A stretch of 35,340 bases of DNA from a virus, in IMG/VR virus record IMGVR_UViG_3300020728_000001. One strand, written 5' to 3'. Below are positions 5,400 through 11,397 of this stretch, piece after piece. The position numbers were made by a program, and so were the translations under genes. The notes under the pieces were generated by a model that saw nothing but the letters and a program-made list of their open reading frames with translations, was not told where the DNA came from and did no database searches. Numbering within the stretch: the first letter of the stretch is position 1; each line of letters begins with the position of its first letter.

Positions 5400-5673
5400 A
5401 GATGAAGAAATGTGGTTACGAGAGTTAGCGGCTGGACGATGCGTTATTACAAAAGTAACAGAACAACTTGGCCCAATGTCTTTATGGTCTAAGGATGGGC
5501 TAGAAGCAGAAATACGCAGAGCAGTAGAAGCCGAGCGTGAGGCAATAGCGCAGATGTTTGAAGGTGCGCCTGCATTGGTGCAGTTTGCACAGAACGACAA
5601 AGGAGGCTGTTTGGTTTGTGGGTTTACACCAAAGCTAATAATTGAAGCCATTAGAGCAAGGGGACAACAATGA
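5392..5673 (+). CDS. Hypothetical protein (AEREAIA...C..C...AIRARGQQ motif)
   Basis: 93-aa ORF overlapping both neighbours. The C-terminal motif is paralogous to 577..771. Confidence 0.6.
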   Translation: MTKDEEMWLRELAAGRCVITKVTEQLGPMSLWSKDGLEAEIRRAVEAEREAIAQMFEGAPALVQFAQNDKGGCLVCGFTPKLIIEAIRARGQQ

Positions 5674-5909
5674 ATAAAGTCTATCCCTTTCTACACCGTA
5701 ACCCCACATCTGGCCTAGTCACCCAGCATGATGGTATAGATCAGCGTCTATGGGTGGCAACACACATAGCAGCTGGAATGGTCTCTTACGCTTATAGCAA
5801 GTGCGCTACGGTGGAAGAGATCGCAGCATCCTCGTTTGCAGTCGCAGACGCAATCCTAACTTTTAATGAAGGTAAACCCTATGAGCAACCAGTTAATACC
5901 CCTGAATGA
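5670..5909 (+). CDS. Hypothetical protein
   Basis: 79-aa ORF with an ATGA overlap with the upstream gene. Confidence 0.5.
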   Translation: MNKVYPFLHRNPTSGLVTQHDGIDQRLWVATHIAAGMVSYAYSKCATVEEIAASSFAVADAILTFNEGKPYEQPVNTPE

Positions 5910-6720
5910 CATTCAGACGATGGCAGAAGTCGCTGCTGGATCTAAGATGTTTGGGTTTAAAAACCCACAAGAGGCAATGGCAATCATGTTGCTGTGCCAG
6001 GCTGAAGACTTACACCCTGCTATTGCTATGCGTGACTATCACGTCATCCAAGGCCGTCCAGCTCTAAAGGCTGACGCAATGCTAGCAAGGTTTCAGGCAG
6101 CTGGTGGAAGTGTTAACTGGAAGGACTATACAGATGAGCAGGTCACGGGAGTATTTAGTCATCCAGCGGGCGGCAGCCTTGAGGTCACCTGGACACTTGC
6201 AAAGGCCAAACTCATTGGTATTGCGGGCAAGGACAACTGGCGCAATTATCCCAGGGCAATGTTGCGTGCTAGGTGCGTCTCTGAGGGTATCAGATCGGTC
6301 TATCCAGGCTGCGTTGTCGGTGTCTACACGCCTGAAGAAGTACAGGATTTCCAGCCTCCCAGACAAGAACAAGCTGCTGTACCACCGTCTCCAGTTGAGA
6401 TCATTAAAGAAGTGGTTAAACAACAATTAGACGCAGAATGGCCTCTATTCGTTCCAAATTTAGAAGAGGCACACAGTGCCCACCACACGCCAGAAGAGTG
6501 GATAGAGGCTTATGCGGGGCTTGTAGAGCGTATTAACGGCAGTGCAAAGCTGAAAGTACAAGAGAAGACAGACAAGATCATGTCTTTGTACGTTTGCAAC
6601 CAGATGGTTGTAGACAAGTTCAGCGCACACCAACGCATTTTGCTCAGAAGTGCTATTGCCCAAGCTGGTGTAGACCCAGCAACTCACATTCCCACAGACG
6701 CAGAAACCATAGATTTATAA
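5881..6720 (+). CDS. Single-strand annealing protein, RecT/Red-beta superfamily-like
   Basis: Track ORF 5866..6720 trimmed to ATG 5881 (GAAGG upstream). NYPRAMLRARCVSEGIRSVYPG...YTPEE resembles the HPKRMLRHKA...GIYDKDE region of lambda Bet. Paired with the exonuclease gene. Confidence 0.6.
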   Translation: MSNQLIPLNDIQTMAEVAAGSKMFGFKNPQEAMAIMLLCQAEDLHPAIAMRDYHVIQGRPALKADAMLARFQAAGGSVNWKDYTDEQVTGVFSHPAGGSLEVTWTLAKAKLIGIAGKDNWRNYPRAMLRARCVSEGIRSVYPGCVVGVYTPEEVQDFQPPRQEQAAVPPSPVEIIKEVVKQQLDAEWPLFVPNLEEAHSAHHTPEEWIEAYAGLVERINGSAKLKVQEKTDKIMSLYVCNQMVVDKFSAHQRILLRSAIAQAGVDPATHIPTDAETIDL

Positions 6721-7471: not shown

Positions 7472-7547
7472 GGGACGTTAGCTCAGCTGGTAGAGCAGCG
7501 GACTTTTAATCCGTTTGTCGTGGGTTCGATCCCCGCACGTCCCACCA
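7472..7547 (+). tRNA. tRNA-Lys (anticodon UUU) with encoded CCA
   Basis: Hand-folded cloverleaf. Acceptor GGGACGT/ACGTCCC; D arm GCTC-AGCTGGTA-GAGC; anticodon arm GCGGA-CTTTTAA-TCCGT; variable loop TTGTC; T arm GTGGG-TTCGATC-CCCGC; discriminator A, then CCA. Confidence 0.9.
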
Positions 7548-7655: not shown

Positions 7656-8456
7656 ATGGCAACTCGCAAGAAAAAAGAAGTCGTAGAAGTAAAACCTGAG
7701 AAGAAAGAGAAGAAGACAAACGTGTTTGTGGCTACCCCTATGTACGGGGGAATGTGTACAGGCTACTTCACCCAATCCCTGATTACTCTGGGTCACACAC
7801 TGCAATCTAACGGCATTAGCATGGGGTTCTCTGCCATGTTCAACGAAAGCCTCATACAGCGGGGTAGGAACGCTTTAGCGCACACGTTTATGACGAACAA
7901 GCAGTACACCCATCTGATGTTTATAGACGCTGACATCAAGTTCAACGGGGCTGACCTGGTGAAGATGATCCAGGCAGACAAAGACATCATCTGCGGTATC
8001 TACCCCAAGAAAGAAATCAACTGGGGAGGCGTTGCACAAGCAGCTGCTGAAGGTATACCTGTTGACCAGTGGAAGAATAGAACAGGTAGCCTAGTGATCA
8101 ACTTAAAAGACTATCAAGGATCAGTTACTGTGCCTGTGGACAAGCCTGTGGAAATCTTTAATGGTGGCACAGGGTTCATGTTGATCAAGAGAAGGACTTT
8201 TGAACGCATGAAGAAGGTGGTCAACAAGTACAAGAATGACGTGGGTTTTATAGGCCAAGGCGTAGAACAACAAGAGTGGATCACAGAATACTTTGCCTGT
8301 GCTATTGAACCAGGCACAGAGAGACTGCTGTCTGAGGACTATTTCTTCTGCTGGAAGGCTAGAGAGGCAGGACTAAAGGTTTGGGCAGCACCCTGGGCGC
8401 AATTAGGGCACTTTGGGACGTATTTGTTTGAAGGTGGACTCTTACCAGCTCCTTAA
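7656..8456 (+). CDS. GT-A-fold glycosyltransferase-like protein with a Lys/Glu-rich N-terminal extension
   Basis: 266 aa. VFVATPMYGG...RGRNALAH...THLMFIDADIKF (DxD)...DIICGIYPKK matches the pattern of a phage/bacterial glycosyltransferase family as I remember it. Confidence 0.55.
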   Translation: MATRKKKEVVEVKPEKKEKKTNVFVATPMYGGMCTGYFTQSLITLGHTLQSNGISMGFSAMFNESLIQRGRNALAHTFMTNKQYTHLMFIDADIKFNGADLVKMIQADKDIICGIYPKKEINWGGVAQAAAEGIPVDQWKNRTGSLVINLKDYQGSVTVPVDKPVEIFNGGTGFMLIKRRTFERMKKVVNKYKNDVGFIGQGVEQQEWITEYFACAIEPGTERLLSEDYFFCWKAREAGLKVWAAPWAQLGHFGTYLFEGGLLPAP

Positions 8457-8683
8457 CGACAACCCCATCTTTTACGGGCAGCACGCCCTCTTTCTCCAGT
8501 CCAACCAGAACTACGAGCACAAAATGATTTATGCCTTGGTCCTGACTTTTGGGGTGCTTTTAGCTTGCTCCCTGTTGCTTTGTTGTATTTTGCTCGTCCT
8601 TTGGCTGTCAAGCCTCCCCCTTTGGATACTGGGAGTTTCTCTCCTCGGCCTACTGATAGGTTTGGACCTGACTTTCTAGGCAT
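8453..8683 (-). CDS. Small highly basic protein (KGGGLTAKGRAKYNKATGSKLKAP motif), last gene of the minus arm
   Basis: Track ORF 8453..8707 trimmed to ATG 8683, which overlaps the endolysin stop by 8 nt. I weakly recall a conserved GGLT-KGR-KYN motif family. The mirror plus-strand ORF 8413..8679 is judged a shadow. Confidence 0.5.
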   Translation of the reverse strand: MPRKSGPNLSVGRGEKLPVSKGGGLTAKGRAKYNKATGSKLKAPQKSGPRHKSFCARSSGWTGERGRAARKRWGCR

Positions 8684-9107
8684 ATAAACGTGTGCCATTG
8701 CGGTCAATTATGAGCCGTTGTAGTCTAGGTTTGTCATTAGGACTATTAGGCACAGATATATGAGTCCAACGATCAAACTCACGAATAACTTGGTCATACT
8801 GTAGGTCACTCCCAATAATAGCTTTGACTACCTCGTCTGGGGTCATGCCAGGCACTCTTAGGTCAGCAGCGCAACCCAGCCTATGCTGAGAGGTGTTTTT
8901 TGATCCACAAGCATTGTTCACGGCCTCTGACCGAAATGCGCTGTTAACCATGATCGGCTTGCCACCCAGCACTGTTTTAACTTGCTCCAGAAACTCAGCC
9001 AAGCGCATGAGATTAGCTTTTTCGTATTCGCTAGGTTCATTTGTAAACTCCCTGTGGTCTGTGACCGTAAGTTCTTCCAGCGTGAAGTGTTCGGTAAGTA
9101 GTGTCAT
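8676..9107 (-). CDS. Endolysin, peptidase M15-type (zinc D-Ala-D-Ala carboxypeptidase-like)
   Basis: 143 aa. SQHRLGCAADL (S-x-H-x3-G-x-A-x-D) and the downstream W-T-H are the M15 metal ligand motifs. ATGA overlap with the holin-like gene. Confidence 0.8.
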   Translation of the reverse strand: MTLLTEHFTLEELTVTDHREFTNEPSEYEKANLMRLAEFLEQVKTVLGGKPIMVNSAFRSEAVNNACGSKNTSQHRLGCAADLRVPGMTPDEVVKAIIGSDLQYDQVIREFDRWTHISVPNSPNDKPRLQRLIIDRNGTRLYA

Positions 9108-9598
9108 TTTGTGGGGGTACTCTGGTGAAGAAGTGCATCTTTGTTCTGGCTAGACGCAGAACTCCCAAAATAGAAACTAATCACTCCCGTCCAGGCAGTC
9201 CCCAGAGAACCCAATAGGAGCATCAAGGCATCACTAGAAGTCACTTTGCCTGTCATCATACCCACTAGGATACCAAAGAACCCCAGAGTGATGATTAGAG
9301 CCAGCAGGGGAGGAATAAAAGACTTGGTGGTAGTCTGCATATCCCTAGCAGACTTTCTGTCTTGTACAGCCAGTTGCTCAAAGTCTAGGTTCATCTCTTG
9401 AGCCTTGGCCTTTAACTGGATCTCTGCAGCCTGAATGCTGGCTATCTGGTCTGCGGTGAGTTTGCCTGAGTTGATGGTGTCTTGTACGGCACTAGGGTCA
9501 ACCCCTATAGCCTTGGATACGGCCTCCACAGCAAGGCCAGCGAGTGGACCGCCTAAGCAACTGGCAATGGTAGGGGCTATGCTTTCAATCCAACTCAT
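9104..9598 (-). CDS. Holin-like membrane protein (resembles the GTA-type 3TM holin family)
   Basis: 164 aa. Amphipathic N-terminus (GGPLAGLAVEAV), D-x-K-SARD, then two C-terminal hydrophobic helices. Lies immediately upstream of the endolysin. Confidence 0.5.
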   Translation of the reverse strand: MSWIESIAPTIASCLGGPLAGLAVEAVSKAIGVDPSAVQDTINSGKLTADQIASIQAAEIQLKAKAQEMNLDFEQLAVQDRKSARDMQTTTKSFIPPLLALIITLGFFGILVGMMTGKVTSSDALMLLLGSLGTAWTGVISFYFGSSASSQNKDALLHQSTPTK

Positions 9599-10148
9599 TT
9601 AATACTCCCATCTTTACTCTTTTGATAGTCAACATGAATAGCATACATGAGGGCAGAGAAGACGATCAAGAGAGATAAACAGCCAGCCAATAACGCTCCA
9701 CGAACTTGCCATTTGTCGATAAACTGCCGTCTCTTTCTGGCAGCCTCCTCAAGGGCTTTTTTTGTTCACGCTCGATCTTTTCTCGCTCTTTTCGTACAAC
9801 TTCCCGCATCTCTACAAACTTACTCCAGAGACCAGGCATACCTATTTGATAGATGATCATCTCTCTAAGATCGGTCTCCATCTGCTCCAGCTGTTGCTGG
9901 CGTAGGATGCGGTTCATGGCCTCCTCGTTGATAGACATACCTTTGCTTAGAGGCTTATTCTTTGCCTCCTTCTCGGCCTCTTTAAACGATTCCTGGTGGG
10001 TAAAGAACGCACCTAAGTTCTTACCAATGTCACCCACAATGTCGGACACGTCTTTACCATCCTTTTTAAAGTCCTGGTAAAGATCAATACACTCTCGAAT
10101 ACCCGCATGAGCAGCCTTGCACGCTGCGAATATTGTCAGCGGGTCCAC
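9595..10148 (-). CDS. Coiled-coil protein. The 0-frame product stops at 9666 (160 aa); a -1 shift at 9762..9756 gives 184 aa with a C-terminal TM helix
   Basis: GTG start at 10148 abuts the upstream stop. Hand translation of the -1 frame after CAA_AAA_AAG gives ALEEAARKRRQFIDKWQVRGALLAGCLSLLIVFSALMYAIHVDYQKSKDGSIK. Its TGA (9597..9595) overlaps the holin ATG (9598..9596). Confidence 0.55.
9756..9762 (-). other. In-frame slippery heptamer A_AAA_AAG (dnaX-type -1 frameshift motif) or homopolymer indel site
   Basis: Codons CAA(9764..9762) AAA(9761..9759) AAG(9758..9756) are in the frame of ORF 9666..10148. A 5-6-bp hairpin CTGCC/GGCAG (9743..9739 with 9728..9724) lies 11-12 nt downstream. Confidence 0.45.
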
Positions 10149-10511
10149 TTATAACCCCTCTCCTGGCGTGATGTAGGCTTCAACAGCACCCGATGCACCA
10201 GTGTCAGTAATGTAAGCTACATACACGGGTTGTGTAGGACTGCACTGCACAGCAGTAATTGTCCTGTTCATGCCAGGCACAATCACAATACAGTTGCTAG
10301 GTGACCCGTTGGCTGGGGCAGAGACGGTCACGTTTGCAGCCGTGCTGATGTTGACGTAGACGGGATAACCACCAGTACCTGTTGGCTGGTGACTAGACAA
10401 CAAATACTGGTTGGTAGGCGAAACCGTGGTGATCTGGATGGTTTGTGACGAGGACGTAGCGTTAGCCTTGTACGTCATTCCAGAGGCTTGGAACGCAATA
10501 TTGTTAGCCAT
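10149..10511 (-). CDS. Small S/T/N-rich beta-type virion-associated protein, paralogue of 19873..20208
   Basis: 120 aa. Shares N-C-I-x3-P-G and the C-terminal YITPGEG with the 111-aa protein, which ends YITPGDG. Confidence 0.55.
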   Translation of the reverse strand: MANNIAFQASGMTYKANATSSSQTIQITTVSPTNQYLLSSHQPTGTGGYPVYVNISTAANVTVSAPANGSPSNCIVIVPGMNRTITAVQCSPTQPVYVAYITDTGASGAVEAYITPGEGL

Positions 10512-11238: not shown

Positions 11239-11397
11239 TCAGCCTCTTTTGCCTTTTCTCTTACCAGACTTTTTTGATTTGCGAGCCGATGACAAAGCGA
11301 TAGCAATAATTTGCTTGCGTGGACGGCCTCCTTCTTTTGTGAGTTTGCTAATGTTCTTGGATATTGTTTCACGGCTATTACCTTTTTTGAGTGGCAT
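11239..11397 (-). CDS. Small basic protein not in the ORF track ([52 protein letters not shown])
   Basis: Hand translation gives 52 aa. GGAG SD 6 nt upstream of ATG 11397. Fills the gap between 11407 and 11220. Resembles a widespread small K-rich phage/bacterial protein pattern (KKG.S..TIS.NI..L...G.P.KQ..AIALS.A). Confidence 0.55.

Follow-up and report, generated by a model that had tools for sequence, protein, structure and literature searches.

A conserved A_AAA_AAG heptamer in a phage lysis-cassette gene points to programmed -1 frameshifting towards a tail-anchored protein

The virus record IMGVR_UViG_3300020728_000001, of which the whole analysed stretch of 35,340 nt is here called the window, carries on its minus strand a gene that appears to end twice, and the question is whether one protein or two are made from it, and by which step. 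The annotated 0 frame crosses a run of seven A (9763..9757) and a G (9756) as ...GAA CAA AAA AAG CCC..., continues into the tail PLRRLPERDGSLSTNGKFVERYWLAVYLS and stops at 9666, leaving 67 nt before the next ATG (9598). Read one base back from the same site, the DNA gives KK-ALEEAARKRRQFIDKWQVRGALLAGCLSLLIVFSALMYAIHVDYQKSKDGSIK up to a TGA (9597..9595) that overlaps the start of the downstream gene as ATGA, the fused trans-frame product having 184 aa (Table 1). A sequence-only reading of the locus had called attention to the in-phase heptamer, the early stop and the gap, as well as to the continued frame with its transmembrane (TM) helix and overlapping stop, and all of these are present in the sequence; it had left two explanations side by side, an indel error in the homopolymer and programmed frameshifting.

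Table 1. Features of the frameshift locus and its surroundings in the window
Feature	Position	Strand	Description
tRNA-Lys(UUU)	7472..7547	+	Sole tRNA gene in the window; decodes both codons of the heptamer
Endolysin	8676..9107	-	Peptidase_M15_3; defines the lysis cassette
Downstream gene	9104..9598	-	164 aa; membrane protein with two C-terminal hydrophobic segments; own Shine-Dalgarno sequence (GGGAG)
-1-frame extension	9595..9756	-	53 codons: ALEEAARKRRQFIDKWQVR, TM, HVDYQKSKDGSIK, then TGA at 9595..9597
C-terminal TM helix of the trans-frame product	9637..9699	-	G151-I171, GALLAGCLSLLIVFSALMYAI
0-frame ORF as annotated	9666..10148	-	GTG start, 160 aa
0-frame ORF, residues 1-131			Conserved N-terminal domain and first part of the stalk helix
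0-frame ORF, residues 132-160			Out-of-frame tail without constraint
Predicted 3' hairpin	9716..9752	-	Outer stem 9752..9749/9719..9716, inner stem 9746..9739/9728..9721, loop of 10 nt
Slippery heptamer A_AAA_AAG	9756..9762	-	X_XXY_YYZ phase, codons CAA AAA AAG
Invariant 5' block GAGCGTGA	9766..9773	-	Codons GAG CGT GA-, fixed including synonymous positions

The string AAAAAAG is not enriched in the window (14 occurrences against 9.7 expected), and only this one combines the shift-prone phase with a long open -1 frame, which opens just two codons ahead of the slip site, for the invariant block GAGCGTGA contains a -1-frame TGA (9768..9766). Of all heptamers, A_AAA_AAG shifts most readily in bacteria that have a single tRNA-Lys (PMC5009743), and in vitro the dnaX heptamer by itself supports about 14-16% frameshifting (bioRxiv 10.1101/2025.10.02.679949). 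Judged by the comparative evidence set out below, the two frames are probably joined by programmed -1 ribosomal frameshifting, which would yield a minority tail-anchored protein of 184 aa beside a truncated soluble form. Most ribosomes would read CAA AAA AAG CCC..., add a meaningless tail and terminate ahead of the gap, releasing the soluble protein; some, with tRNA-Lys in both the P and the A sites on the heptamer, would slip back one base, complete the stalk in the -1 frame, followed by the TM helix, and end on the ATG of the next gene of the lysis cassette. The split would fall inside the stalk helix in this phage lineage, and a single gene of the late operon would supply little anchored protein relative to soluble protein, in a proportion fixed genetically. 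What I infer here concerns the ribosomal nature of the slip, its efficiency and the function of the short form.

An error of sequencing or assembly would make the true genome A8, with a single ORF of 184 aa. Runs of seven A are error-prone on some platforms, distant relatives do have single ORFs, and the fused ORF restores the standard packing of the genes; the close relatives argue strongly to the contrary. The in-phase A_AAA_AAG is invariant, with the same A7G and the same split into two frames, at all 80 related viral contigs or loci from 65 metagenome datasets, and more than 100 independent protein clusters (ENA, JGI, Logan) end at the same ...EREQKK, followed by divergent tails which evolve as expected of sequence long read out of frame. 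Relatives with an A8 or A5 run giving one continuous ORF, which the sequence-only reading had regarded as fatal to frameshifting, are absent from the close set, in which the -1 frame is conserved. With six divergent clades split likewise (see below), an error has virtually no probability. Two apparent exceptions were dismissed: P0189, a candidate natural fused variant, is an assembly artefact, its contig (L165) having many indels and in-frame stops and still carrying A7G, and the putative fusion L011 (same contig as L093) owes its appearance to a 1-nt upstream insertion that leads to a premature stop, and reflects either an error or a mutation. When the region was compared with 50,697 phage records by megablast, no close cultured relative was matched, and scans of 185,579 species genomes with the N-domain and with the family alignment found no host or prophage context.

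The 51 unique sequences of the close set allow the two frames to be compared for selection, and the frame under constraint changes at the heptamer. Frame 0 has a pN/pS of 0.14 (0.09-0.20) upstream of it and of 1.04 (0.83-1.35) beyond it, where the value for frame -1 is 0.36 (0.25-0.47); the 0-frame tail varies between 29 and 44 codons in length. The -1 codons past the site, being under purifying selection, must therefore be translated. They might be so as an independent gene with its own start, or they might belong to a decaying pseudogene without expression; gene callers indeed report the 0-frame ORF alone, save for an occasional short -1 ORF (P0251). This is, however, highly improbable, given that the -1 ORF is closed in all 51 sequences by a stop 6 nt 5' of the heptamer and lacks a conserved start codon, the first possible start ranging from +9 to +96 and often lying within the TM helix, that the first 28 codons past the site already have a -1-frame pN/pS of 0.35, and that no sequence (0/51) has acquired a -1-frame stop within 40 codons. 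Constraint also extends to the nucleotides themselves: the invariant codons GAG CGT .. CAA AAA AAG have a third-position entropy of zero, against about 1-1.9 bits elsewhere, and the five-codon mean falls to about 0.17 bits at the heptamer.

Beyond the close set, the split recurs in six distant clades (28-43% identity), at the homologous codon and in the same alignment columns, on runs of A6G, A7G, A8 or A9, and their -1 extensions are conserved, with TM segments in all clades. By profile search the family, probably one of tail-anchored inner-membrane proteins, comprises more than 6,000 proteins; they share an N-terminal helical bundle with a MIYQ motif, followed by a charged helix as stalk and by a TM segment at the C-terminus, and most of them carry this architecture in one ORF. 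The fused product has this architecture too; it aligns end to end with the single-ORF homologues and matches phrog_32327 (E = 3.8e-5), a PHROG family of unknown function. In the AlphaFold (AF2) model, with a pLDDT of 81, a continuous helix (105-179) crosses the junction into the TM segment, and the protein is predicted to consist of a three-helix bundle, a single long helix as stalk and, at the C-terminus, a TM anchor. A Pfam search of the frameshift protein returned no domain, Foldseek against the PDB gave generic helical bundles including syntaxin Habc (best E = 0.34), and a BFVD structure search matched uncharacterised proteins only. Programmed frameshifting, as the second explanation of the sequence-only reading, thus draws support from the change of constrained frame at the heptamer, the missing -1 start codon, the collinear single-ORF homologues and the recurrence of the same split in deeply divergent clades.

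Synonymous divergence in the window clade is saturating (pS about 0.7), the split and the exact heptamer being kept nonetheless; as the arrangement has also been retained in at least six other clades, these comparisons suggest that the arrangement itself is under selection. In a neighbour-joining (NJ) tree, on the other hand, split forms are scattered among unsplit sisters, the unsplit state being the majority, which suggests that the two states switch easily and repeatedly. Given the lack of constraint on the 0-frame tail, the short product could be a by-product, as opposed to an isoform with a role of its own. Along this line, the frameshift might be regarded as an attenuator, or as the 'correction' of an indel that became fixed: function would lie in the anchored -1 product alone, the 0-frame product being waste, and a potentially toxic membrane protein would be limited to a few percent of what the highly expressed late operon yields. 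This account concerns function only and shares its recoding mechanism with programmed frameshifting to two products. It is a serious possibility, if not a probable one: the pN/pS of about 1 and the variable length of the tail fit it, as do the majority and the tree position of the unsplit forms, whereas the long retention of the exact heptamer speaks against it, and so does the short form itself, which keeps a complete and strongly conserved three-helix bundle (the 0.14 stretch above).

Downstream of the site, the sequence-only reading had described a small CTGCC/GGCAG hairpin. Both arms are present (9743..9739 and 9728..9724), 12 nt past the heptamer, but they form the centre of a more extended predicted helix, so that the hairpin is larger than described, and moderately supported. 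Its inner stem pairs AGGCUGCC with GGCAGUUU, its outer stem is UUGA/UCGA, and predicted hairpins lie 3-9 nt 3' of the heptamer. Under synonymous randomisation the hairpin has a z of -1.2 to -1.3, control blocks ranging from -0.63 to +0.38; pairing amounts to 75.9%, against 71.2% in shuffles, with 4 covarying pairs. In per-sequence folds the position of the hairpin is kept across relatives while sequences and registers differ, and RNAalifold, run in six windows, gave no consensus 3' structure; the hairpin is missing in L013, L052, L072 and L080 and in the A9 clades L162 and L164. The signal is modest, and a moderately stable hairpin probably helps the slip. On the 5' side, the sequence has no GGAGG-like stimulator at -10 to -14 from the heptamer, GAGCGTGA at -11 to -4 being invariant yet no canonical Shine-Dalgarno (SD) sequence, and an Rfam scan of 9500..10200 with E up to 10 returned just chance miRNA and lncRNA matches and no frameshift element. 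The enriched 3' hairpin and the short A6G and A7G runs were both counted in favour of a ribosomal slip.

The length of the run bears on whether it is the ribosome or the polymerase that slips, for a host or phage RNA polymerase adding one A to some transcripts would yield the same 184-aa protein as a ribosomal shift to the -1 frame. Runs of some nine or more A or T are typical of productive slippage sites in bacteria, a length reached only by L162 and L164 (A9); L163 (A8) is borderline and the A7 of the window clade falls below it. The A8 and A9 runs of these distant split clades favour such a polymerase slip, as does the lack of a 3' hairpin in both A9 clades. A precedent comes from the Ebola virus GP gene, where one A added on an A7 run converts a soluble into a TM-anchored protein, the soluble form being the majority (PMC5009743), although there a viral RNA polymerase stutters, in a eukaryotic RNA virus and on an unrelated protein. 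The window clade, however, has a run of A7, no more and no less, with an invariant G behind it, and L158 has just A6, both short for polymerase slippage; moreover, an A invariably precedes the two Lys codons, despite changes of the residue (CAA or GAA), and in every A7 clade AAG comes third, as in an optimal ribosomal heptamer, and the hairpin is enriched at the spacing of a ribosomal stimulator. Transcriptional slippage is therefore unlikely.

As regards the neighbourhood, the frameshift gene is found in a lysis cassette in every case, with downstream endolysins that differ by lineage (M15, GH24, GH19 or Phage_lysozyme). The downstream gene of the window had been called holin-like, and it does encode a membrane protein; the holin label, in contrast, could not be confirmed, for the gene belongs to phrog_1544, of unknown function, and has no holin match in Pfam. 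Its counterparts vary in identity, comprising a lipoprotein, an HNH-like insert and other membrane proteins. In nearly all lineages the -1 stop lies between -11 and +3 nt from the next start and the 0-frame stop 28-85 nt upstream, which raises the possibility that the shift serves to bring terminating ribosomes to the downstream ATG, coupling its translation to the frameshift rate. MS2 offers the precedent, in the frameshift-dependent reinitiation from coat to lysis gene (Kastelein 1982, as cited in PMC10885494 and PMC5009743); shifted ribosomes terminate there beside the start of a lysis-related gene. Here, by contrast, the downstream gene is preceded in every lineage by an SD of its own, its start region shows no excess of structure over shuffled controls (z = +0.64), so that no structure appears to hide it, and its identity changes between lineages, while the -1 extension is a conserved functional domain, under purifying selection and homologous to the C-terminus of single-ORF relatives. 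Such a delivery as the main purpose of the shift is hence quite improbable.

Several identities were considered for the frameshift protein and rejected. It has no holin match in Pfam or PHROG, and L156 and L157 carry a separate Phage_holin_2_2 holin two genes upstream of it. An i-spanin has an N-terminal TM segment and a periplasmic coiled coil, and a u-spanin an N-terminal lipoprotein signal and a C-terminal TM segment. Neither kind (Rz as i-spanin, T1 gp11 as u-spanin) fits a protein whose sole TM segment is C-terminal and preceded by KRR..K..R, which suggests an N-in topology; the u-spanin option by way of the 'IFAAC' of residues 6-10 fails on the lack of a signal peptide and on the Cys being missing in CRP-1 (gp58) and CRP-406 (gp21), both Roseobacter phages in which the gene is a single ORF. 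Separate Rz-like i-spanins exist in the relatives L156 (with an embedded ORF for an Rz1-type lipoprotein), L032 and L071. A tail assembly chaperone is likewise excluded, the gene following the tail-fibre genes and adjoining those for the membrane protein and the endolysin, with a TM helix as its extension. Judging from the gene neighbourhood only, the protein would be a lysis accessory or regulator next to the holin, and itself no holin, spanin or endolysin.

A more specific proposal, speculative and rather doubtful, is that the frameshift is a lysis-timing device, whose efficiency would set the ratio of the soluble to the anchored form of an accessory protein that acts on the neighbouring holin or membrane protein, this ratio perhaps being tRNA-tuned in one sub-clade. 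If true, the device would be a functional equivalent, by recoding, of the holin-antiholin pair S105/S107 of lambda. That pair, mentioned in PMC3091744, likewise consists of two isoforms from one lysis-cassette gene, which differ in membrane behaviour and are made in a ratio fixed by translation. The lambda isoforms arise, however, by alternative initiation, and S is a holin with three TM segments, whereas the protein described here has one anchor only, at its C-terminus, and occurs in relatives beside separate holins.

Among known recoding systems the closest is E. coli dnaX (tau/gamma), with an identical heptamer in the same phase, decoding by tRNA-Lys(UUU), a hairpin a few nt downstream, here a predicted one, and, as proposed here, two products of one gene in a fixed ratio. 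It differs in that its shift gives the shorter product, while here the shift gives the longer, complete protein; in addition, the present site has no recognisable SD-like element about 10 nt upstream, its predicted hairpin is weaker and not conserved in sequence, it has no match in Rfam, and the protein family is unrelated. Another E. coli case is the -1 frameshift of copA, reportedly described by Meydan and colleagues in 2017 (CopA(Z)). There too the frameshift decides between a soluble and a membrane-embedded product of one gene, but with reversed polarity, the shift truncating a membrane transporter to a soluble chaperone, on another heptamer and in a cellular gene.

In tailed phages, the tail assembly chaperone genes provide the established example (lambda G/GT, P2 E/E+E'; Xu et al. 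2004, as cited in PMC3091744 and PMC10885494). They likewise have a -1 shift in a late-operon gene, at a homologous position across very divergent phages, giving, as proposed for the present gene, a rare C-terminally extended form beside an abundant short one, often with no obvious stimulatory structure. Chaperone genes lie between the major tail and the tape-measure genes and their extension binds the tape measure, whereas the present gene belongs to the lysis cassette, past the tail-fibre genes, and has a membrane anchor as its extension; in contrast to the chaperones, most members of the present family are unsplit.

The mechanism would be a frameshift of known kind, to which this gene family, by its sequence features, appears as a previously unreported addition. 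Conserved programmed frameshifts in dsDNA phages are essentially those of the tail assembly chaperones and of a few capsid genes, and the catalogue searched (PMC5009743, PMC10885494) contains none in a lysis cassette; literature searches agree with the earlier remark that no frameshift-made lysis regulator is known. The site is deeply conserved in a very abundant and completely uncharacterised family of phage proteins, and gene callers systematically mis-annotate such genes as soluble proteins of 157-173 aa with junk C-termini. It also provides an experimental handle on a component of the lysis cassette, as its destruction or fusion should shift the ratio of anchored to soluble protein, and the repeated interconversion of split and unsplit genes is a natural system in which to test the benefit of a fixed-ratio frameshift over a single ORF.

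A last observation concerns the tRNA-Lys(UUU) gene of the window. As an obligatory partner of the slip site it was rejected, being absent near the site in more divergent split lineages: it is limited to a sub-clade at no less than 90% identity, and the other split lineages are without it within 10 kb on either side. That the phages of the window sub-clade tune the ratio by supplying this shift-prone tRNA is an idea of slender probability.

The gene holding the slip site ends in frame 0 with the tail PLRRLPERDGSLSTNGKFVERYWLAVYLS, 67 nt short of the next ATG; in the -1 frame it continues as KK-ALEEAARKRRQFIDKWQVR-GALLAGCLSLLIVFSALMYAI-HVDYQKSKDGSIK, adding a transmembrane (TM) helix, up to a TGA within ATGA, with a fused product of 184 aa. 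The sequence-only reading had described the ORF, the A7 run, the heptamer, both frames and the ATGA junction, all of them correctly. As a plain string, AAAAAAG shows no enrichment over the window (14 observed versus 9.7 expected); of the ten copies within same-strand genes, this one alone is in the shift-prone phase and leads into a long open -1 frame. At the window's only other A_AAA_AAG in shift-prone phase, located in a doubtful ORF, the -1 frame ends after 2 codons.

Positions of the features discussed, in the window unless a related locus is named
Feature	Position	Strand	Description
0-frame ORF	10148..9666	-	GTG start, 160 aa; reads ...GAG CGT GAA CAA AAA AAG CCC...
A7 run	9763..9757	-	
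Heptamer A_AAA_AAG	9762..9756	-	X_XXY_YYZ phase
GAGCGTGA	9773..9766	-	directly 5' of heptamer
-1-frame stop TGA	9597..9595	-	within ATGA
Next ATG	9598	-	
Other A_AAA_AAG in shift-prone phase	11269..11275	-	
Doubtful ORF holding it	11239..11397		52 aa, overlapping an alternative ORF
tRNA-Lys(UUU)	7472..7547	+	sole tRNA gene of window; decoder of both slip-site codons
266-aa protein	7656..8456	+	just past late-operon end
Second in-phase A-run	L071 ~1470		GTA AAA AAA GAG
Cys-rich small lipoprotein	L032:3548-3709, L071:1665-1832, L156:4805-5053		directly after family gene
Spanin pair	L156:5537-6007, 5634-5981		embedded

A homopolymer sequencing error in the A7 run, one of the two options of the sequence-only reading, is rejected: in the 80 IMG/VR contigs compared as related loci (65 metagenome datasets), A_AAA_AAG is found in phase at the same codon in all 80, preceded by C or G, and none of the relatives compared joins the two frames into a single ORF through an A8 or A5 run. 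The proposed comparison of orthologues, heptamer with two frames against a single ORF, finds the heptamer kept at all 80 of these loci. Searching with the fused protein yielded 251 proteins, the best 120 of which are all 127-173 aa long; the 20 of them inspected at full length have ...EREQKK in common and differ downstream in sequence and length. P0189, the one apparent fused protein, was rejected as a natural fusion, its source contig having many indels and in-frame stops with A7G still there. Several indels affect the family gene of locus L165 (ENA ERZ25039480 contig_110614) and one that of L011/L093 (IMG 3300000162), L011 having a 1-nt insertion 20 nt 5' of the heptamer that leads to a premature stop; errors of sequencing or assembly are the best explanation for these indels, which account for the misleading entries P0189 and P0016 in the public protein collection.

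Over the 60 codons upstream of the heptamer, pN/pS in frame 0 is 0.14 (95% bootstrap interval 0.09-0.20), whereas over the 40 codons downstream it is 0.36 (0.25-0.47) in frame -1, 1.04 (0.83-1.35) in frame 0 and 1.66 in frame +1 (pooled Nei-Gojobori, 51 unique sequences, bootstrap over codons), contrasts that are descriptive rather than independent tests because the sequences share kinship. The contrast between frames is large and agrees with the pattern in the protein sequences; stops fall within those 40 codons in 33 of the 51 sequences in frame 0 and in none in frame -1. Purifying selection moves from frame 0 to frame -1 at the heptamer. The extension retains the motif A.E.AA.KRRQFI.KW.VR, the TM helix and LMY.IH.DYQ.SK. 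The -1 ORF as an independent gene was rejected, for a -1-frame TGA lies 6 nt 5' of the heptamer in 51/51 unique sequences (GCG TGA ACA AAA AAA GCC), its earliest ATG/GTG/TTG shifts between +9 and +96, often within the TM helix, and the first 28 -1-frame codons past the site are already under purifying selection (pN/pS 0.35) and therefore entered from the upstream frame.

Third-position entropy, ~1-1.9 bits over most of the gene, has a five-codon mean of ~0.17 bits at the heptamer, with GAG CGT and CAA AAA AAG as invariant codons. The base 5' of the two Lys codons is A throughout, despite a residue change from Gln (CAA) to Glu (GAA), and this fixed A is a requirement of the ribosomal tandem-slippage model. 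GAGCGTGA is invariant in all unique sequences, synonymous positions included, supplies the upstream -1-frame TGA, and also precedes the slip site in the distant clade L159. It does not match a canonical Shine-Dalgarno (SD) sequence, and its distance from the heptamer is shorter than that of the dnaX stimulator (~10 nt spacing). Locus L071 has a second in-phase A-run 31 nt 5' of the real site, where the -1 frame ends after 7 codons, so that a slip there would be abortive.

The CTGCC/GGCAG hairpin of the sequence-only reading proves to be the core of a predicted hairpin (AGGCUGCC/GGCAGUUU). RNAalifold gave no consensus structure 3' of the site, and the stability of the whole 101-nt region is not unusual (z = -0.96). 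Folded one by one, most lineages have a hairpin at the same position (stem ~+10 to +23 with +31 to +46, loop ~+24 to +33), varying in sequence and register: GACGCU/GGCGUC in L016, GCUGCU/AGCAGC in L026, GGAGG/CUCCU in L029, GAAGAAG/CUUCUU in L050 and a stem of 12 bp in L071. The 45 nt 3' of the site rank in the top 10% of stability within the gene in 35/52 sequences. Under synonymous randomisation, with the -1-frame peptide constant and codons shuffled, the post-site mean MFE is -11.9 kcal/mol versus -8.3 in randomised sequences, and the mean z is -1.2 to -1.3 (z < -1 in 25-27 of 37 sequences), eight control blocks averaging -0.63 to +0.38. Column by column, 75.9% of cells of the window helix pair versus 71.2% when shuffled, a value equalled in 0/500 shuffles of what are related sequences; both sides are altered in 4 of its 12 pairs. 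Together, these folds moderately support a hairpin after the site.

The same plan exists as a single ORF in cultured or complete relatives, namely CRP-1 gp58 (153 aa), CRP-406 gp21 (156 aa) and a Manatee Spring phage protein, whose alignment with the fused protein spans the junction and reaches the TM. A profile search collected >6,000 proteins, most of them encoded by one ORF and 155 or 221-231 aa long, none having a Pfam domain or informative name. AlphaFold2 (12-row alignment, pLDDT 81) predicts helices at 3-29, 35-64, 73-102 and 105-179 of the fused sequence, the last spanning both TM and junction (residues 131/132) without a break; a fold search gave no significant PDB match, and in BFVD matched uncharacterised viral proteins only. 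Judging by the basic residues ahead of the TM, the protein would be tail-anchored, with an N-in orientation. Longer members (P0188, P0190, and the -1 extensions of L159, L160 and L162) have an extra, presumably periplasmic, C-terminal segment past the TM with two conserved Cys (...DP..I.CW.....G.LP..C...), which the window's clade is without.

When 1.84 billion cluster representatives were searched exhaustively, the closest unsplit relative was P0188 (48% identity), and several representatives at 28-43% identity break after 'KK' at identical alignment columns. In six of these distant representatives the DNA carries, at codon 127-131, a slippery run that is in phase: GC A_AAA_AAG in L158 (A6), A_AAA_AAG in L159 and L160 (A7), and A_AAA_AAA in L163 (A8), L162 and L164 (A9). 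Their -1 extensions (57-93 aa) contain the basic motif, the TM and LMY.IH.DY. The split state occurs in ~9-10 of 134 full-length representatives, and a rough NJ tree that has no support values disperses split members among unsplit sisters, hence repeated gain or loss; the split appears to be ancient and recurrent.

Slippage of the polymerase would produce an identical protein, and would be most plausible where the run is A8 or A9. Among the distant split clades, L160 (z = -1.4) and L163 (z = -3.4) have strong hairpins, and none was found in the two A9 clades. As the source of the anchored protein, polymerase slippage is nevertheless improbable, and -1 ribosomal frameshifting is favoured on comparative evidence, given the optimal heptamer in fixed phase, runs down to A6 and A7 and a predicted hairpin at stimulator spacing. 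The bare dnaX heptamer frameshifts at ~14-16% in vitro (bioRxiv 10.1101/2025.10.02.679949), and a single tRNA-Lys reading both AAA and AAG makes it especially shift-prone (PMC5009743). Throughout the sub-clade of at least 90% identity, a tRNA-Lys(UUU) gene lies 2.2-4.3 kb from the site, the sole tRNA in any locus; other, more divergent split lineages have none within 10 kb either side, so the site does not depend on it. This tRNA may modulate frameshifting or merely supply codons (among 10,695 codons, Lys is AAA in 317 and AAG in 307).

Searches of the literature turned up no case of frameshifting within the lysis cassette of a dsDNA phage, in line with the sequence-only reading, which was aware of none for lysis regulators; MS2 is the closest lysis-linked case. 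The recoding mechanism would be familiar in kind; what is new is the gene family, its membrane-anchored output and its setting in a lysis cassette.

On its minus strand the window carries a late operon with genes for terminase, portal, major head protein and tail fibres, ending with the slip-site gene, a 164-aa membrane protein (phrog_1544), a Peptidase_M15_3 endolysin and DUF6321. The module downstream varies as a mosaic across the split clade: a different membrane protein and GH24 lysozyme in L076; a Cys-rich lipoprotein, membrane protein, Rz-like i-spanin and GH19 endolysin in L032 and L071. In the distant, unsplit L156 and L157, the family gene is flanked on one side by a Phage_holin_2_2 holin and on the other by an Rz-like i-spanin in which a lipoprotein ORF is embedded, with a GH19 endolysin after it; in further distant unsplit members, the genes downstream are of the Phage_lysozyme or GH19 type. 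From these neighbours in split and unsplit loci, the family protein would be a lysis-cassette accessory rather than a holin, spanin or endolysin. The L156 pair is a textbook embedded one, in which the gene of the Rz-like i-spanin contains, in the +1 frame, an ORF for a proline-rich lipoprotein (LVGC lipobox); the family protein is therefore additional to the canonical lysis set. In nearly all lineages the -1 stop falls -11 to +3 nt from the start that follows, and an SD of its own serves the downstream gene.

The Cys-rich small lipoprotein, found in split and unsplit phages upstream of the membrane protein, Rz-like spanin and GH19 endolysin genes, has a lipobox (LLVSC, FLCSC or LFGC) and a conserved RY.CQ...C..P.C.F.QTCPEYL.APV, and is a recurrent uncharacterised component of lysis cassettes. 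In one lineage (L015), a 204-aa homing-endonuclease-like ORF with a Cys-rich N-terminus, 66 nt past the -1 stop, separates the frameshifted gene from its usual downstream gene. The 266-aa protein beyond the late operon matches phrog_1574 (function unknown) and, weakly, a glycosyltransferase PHROG.
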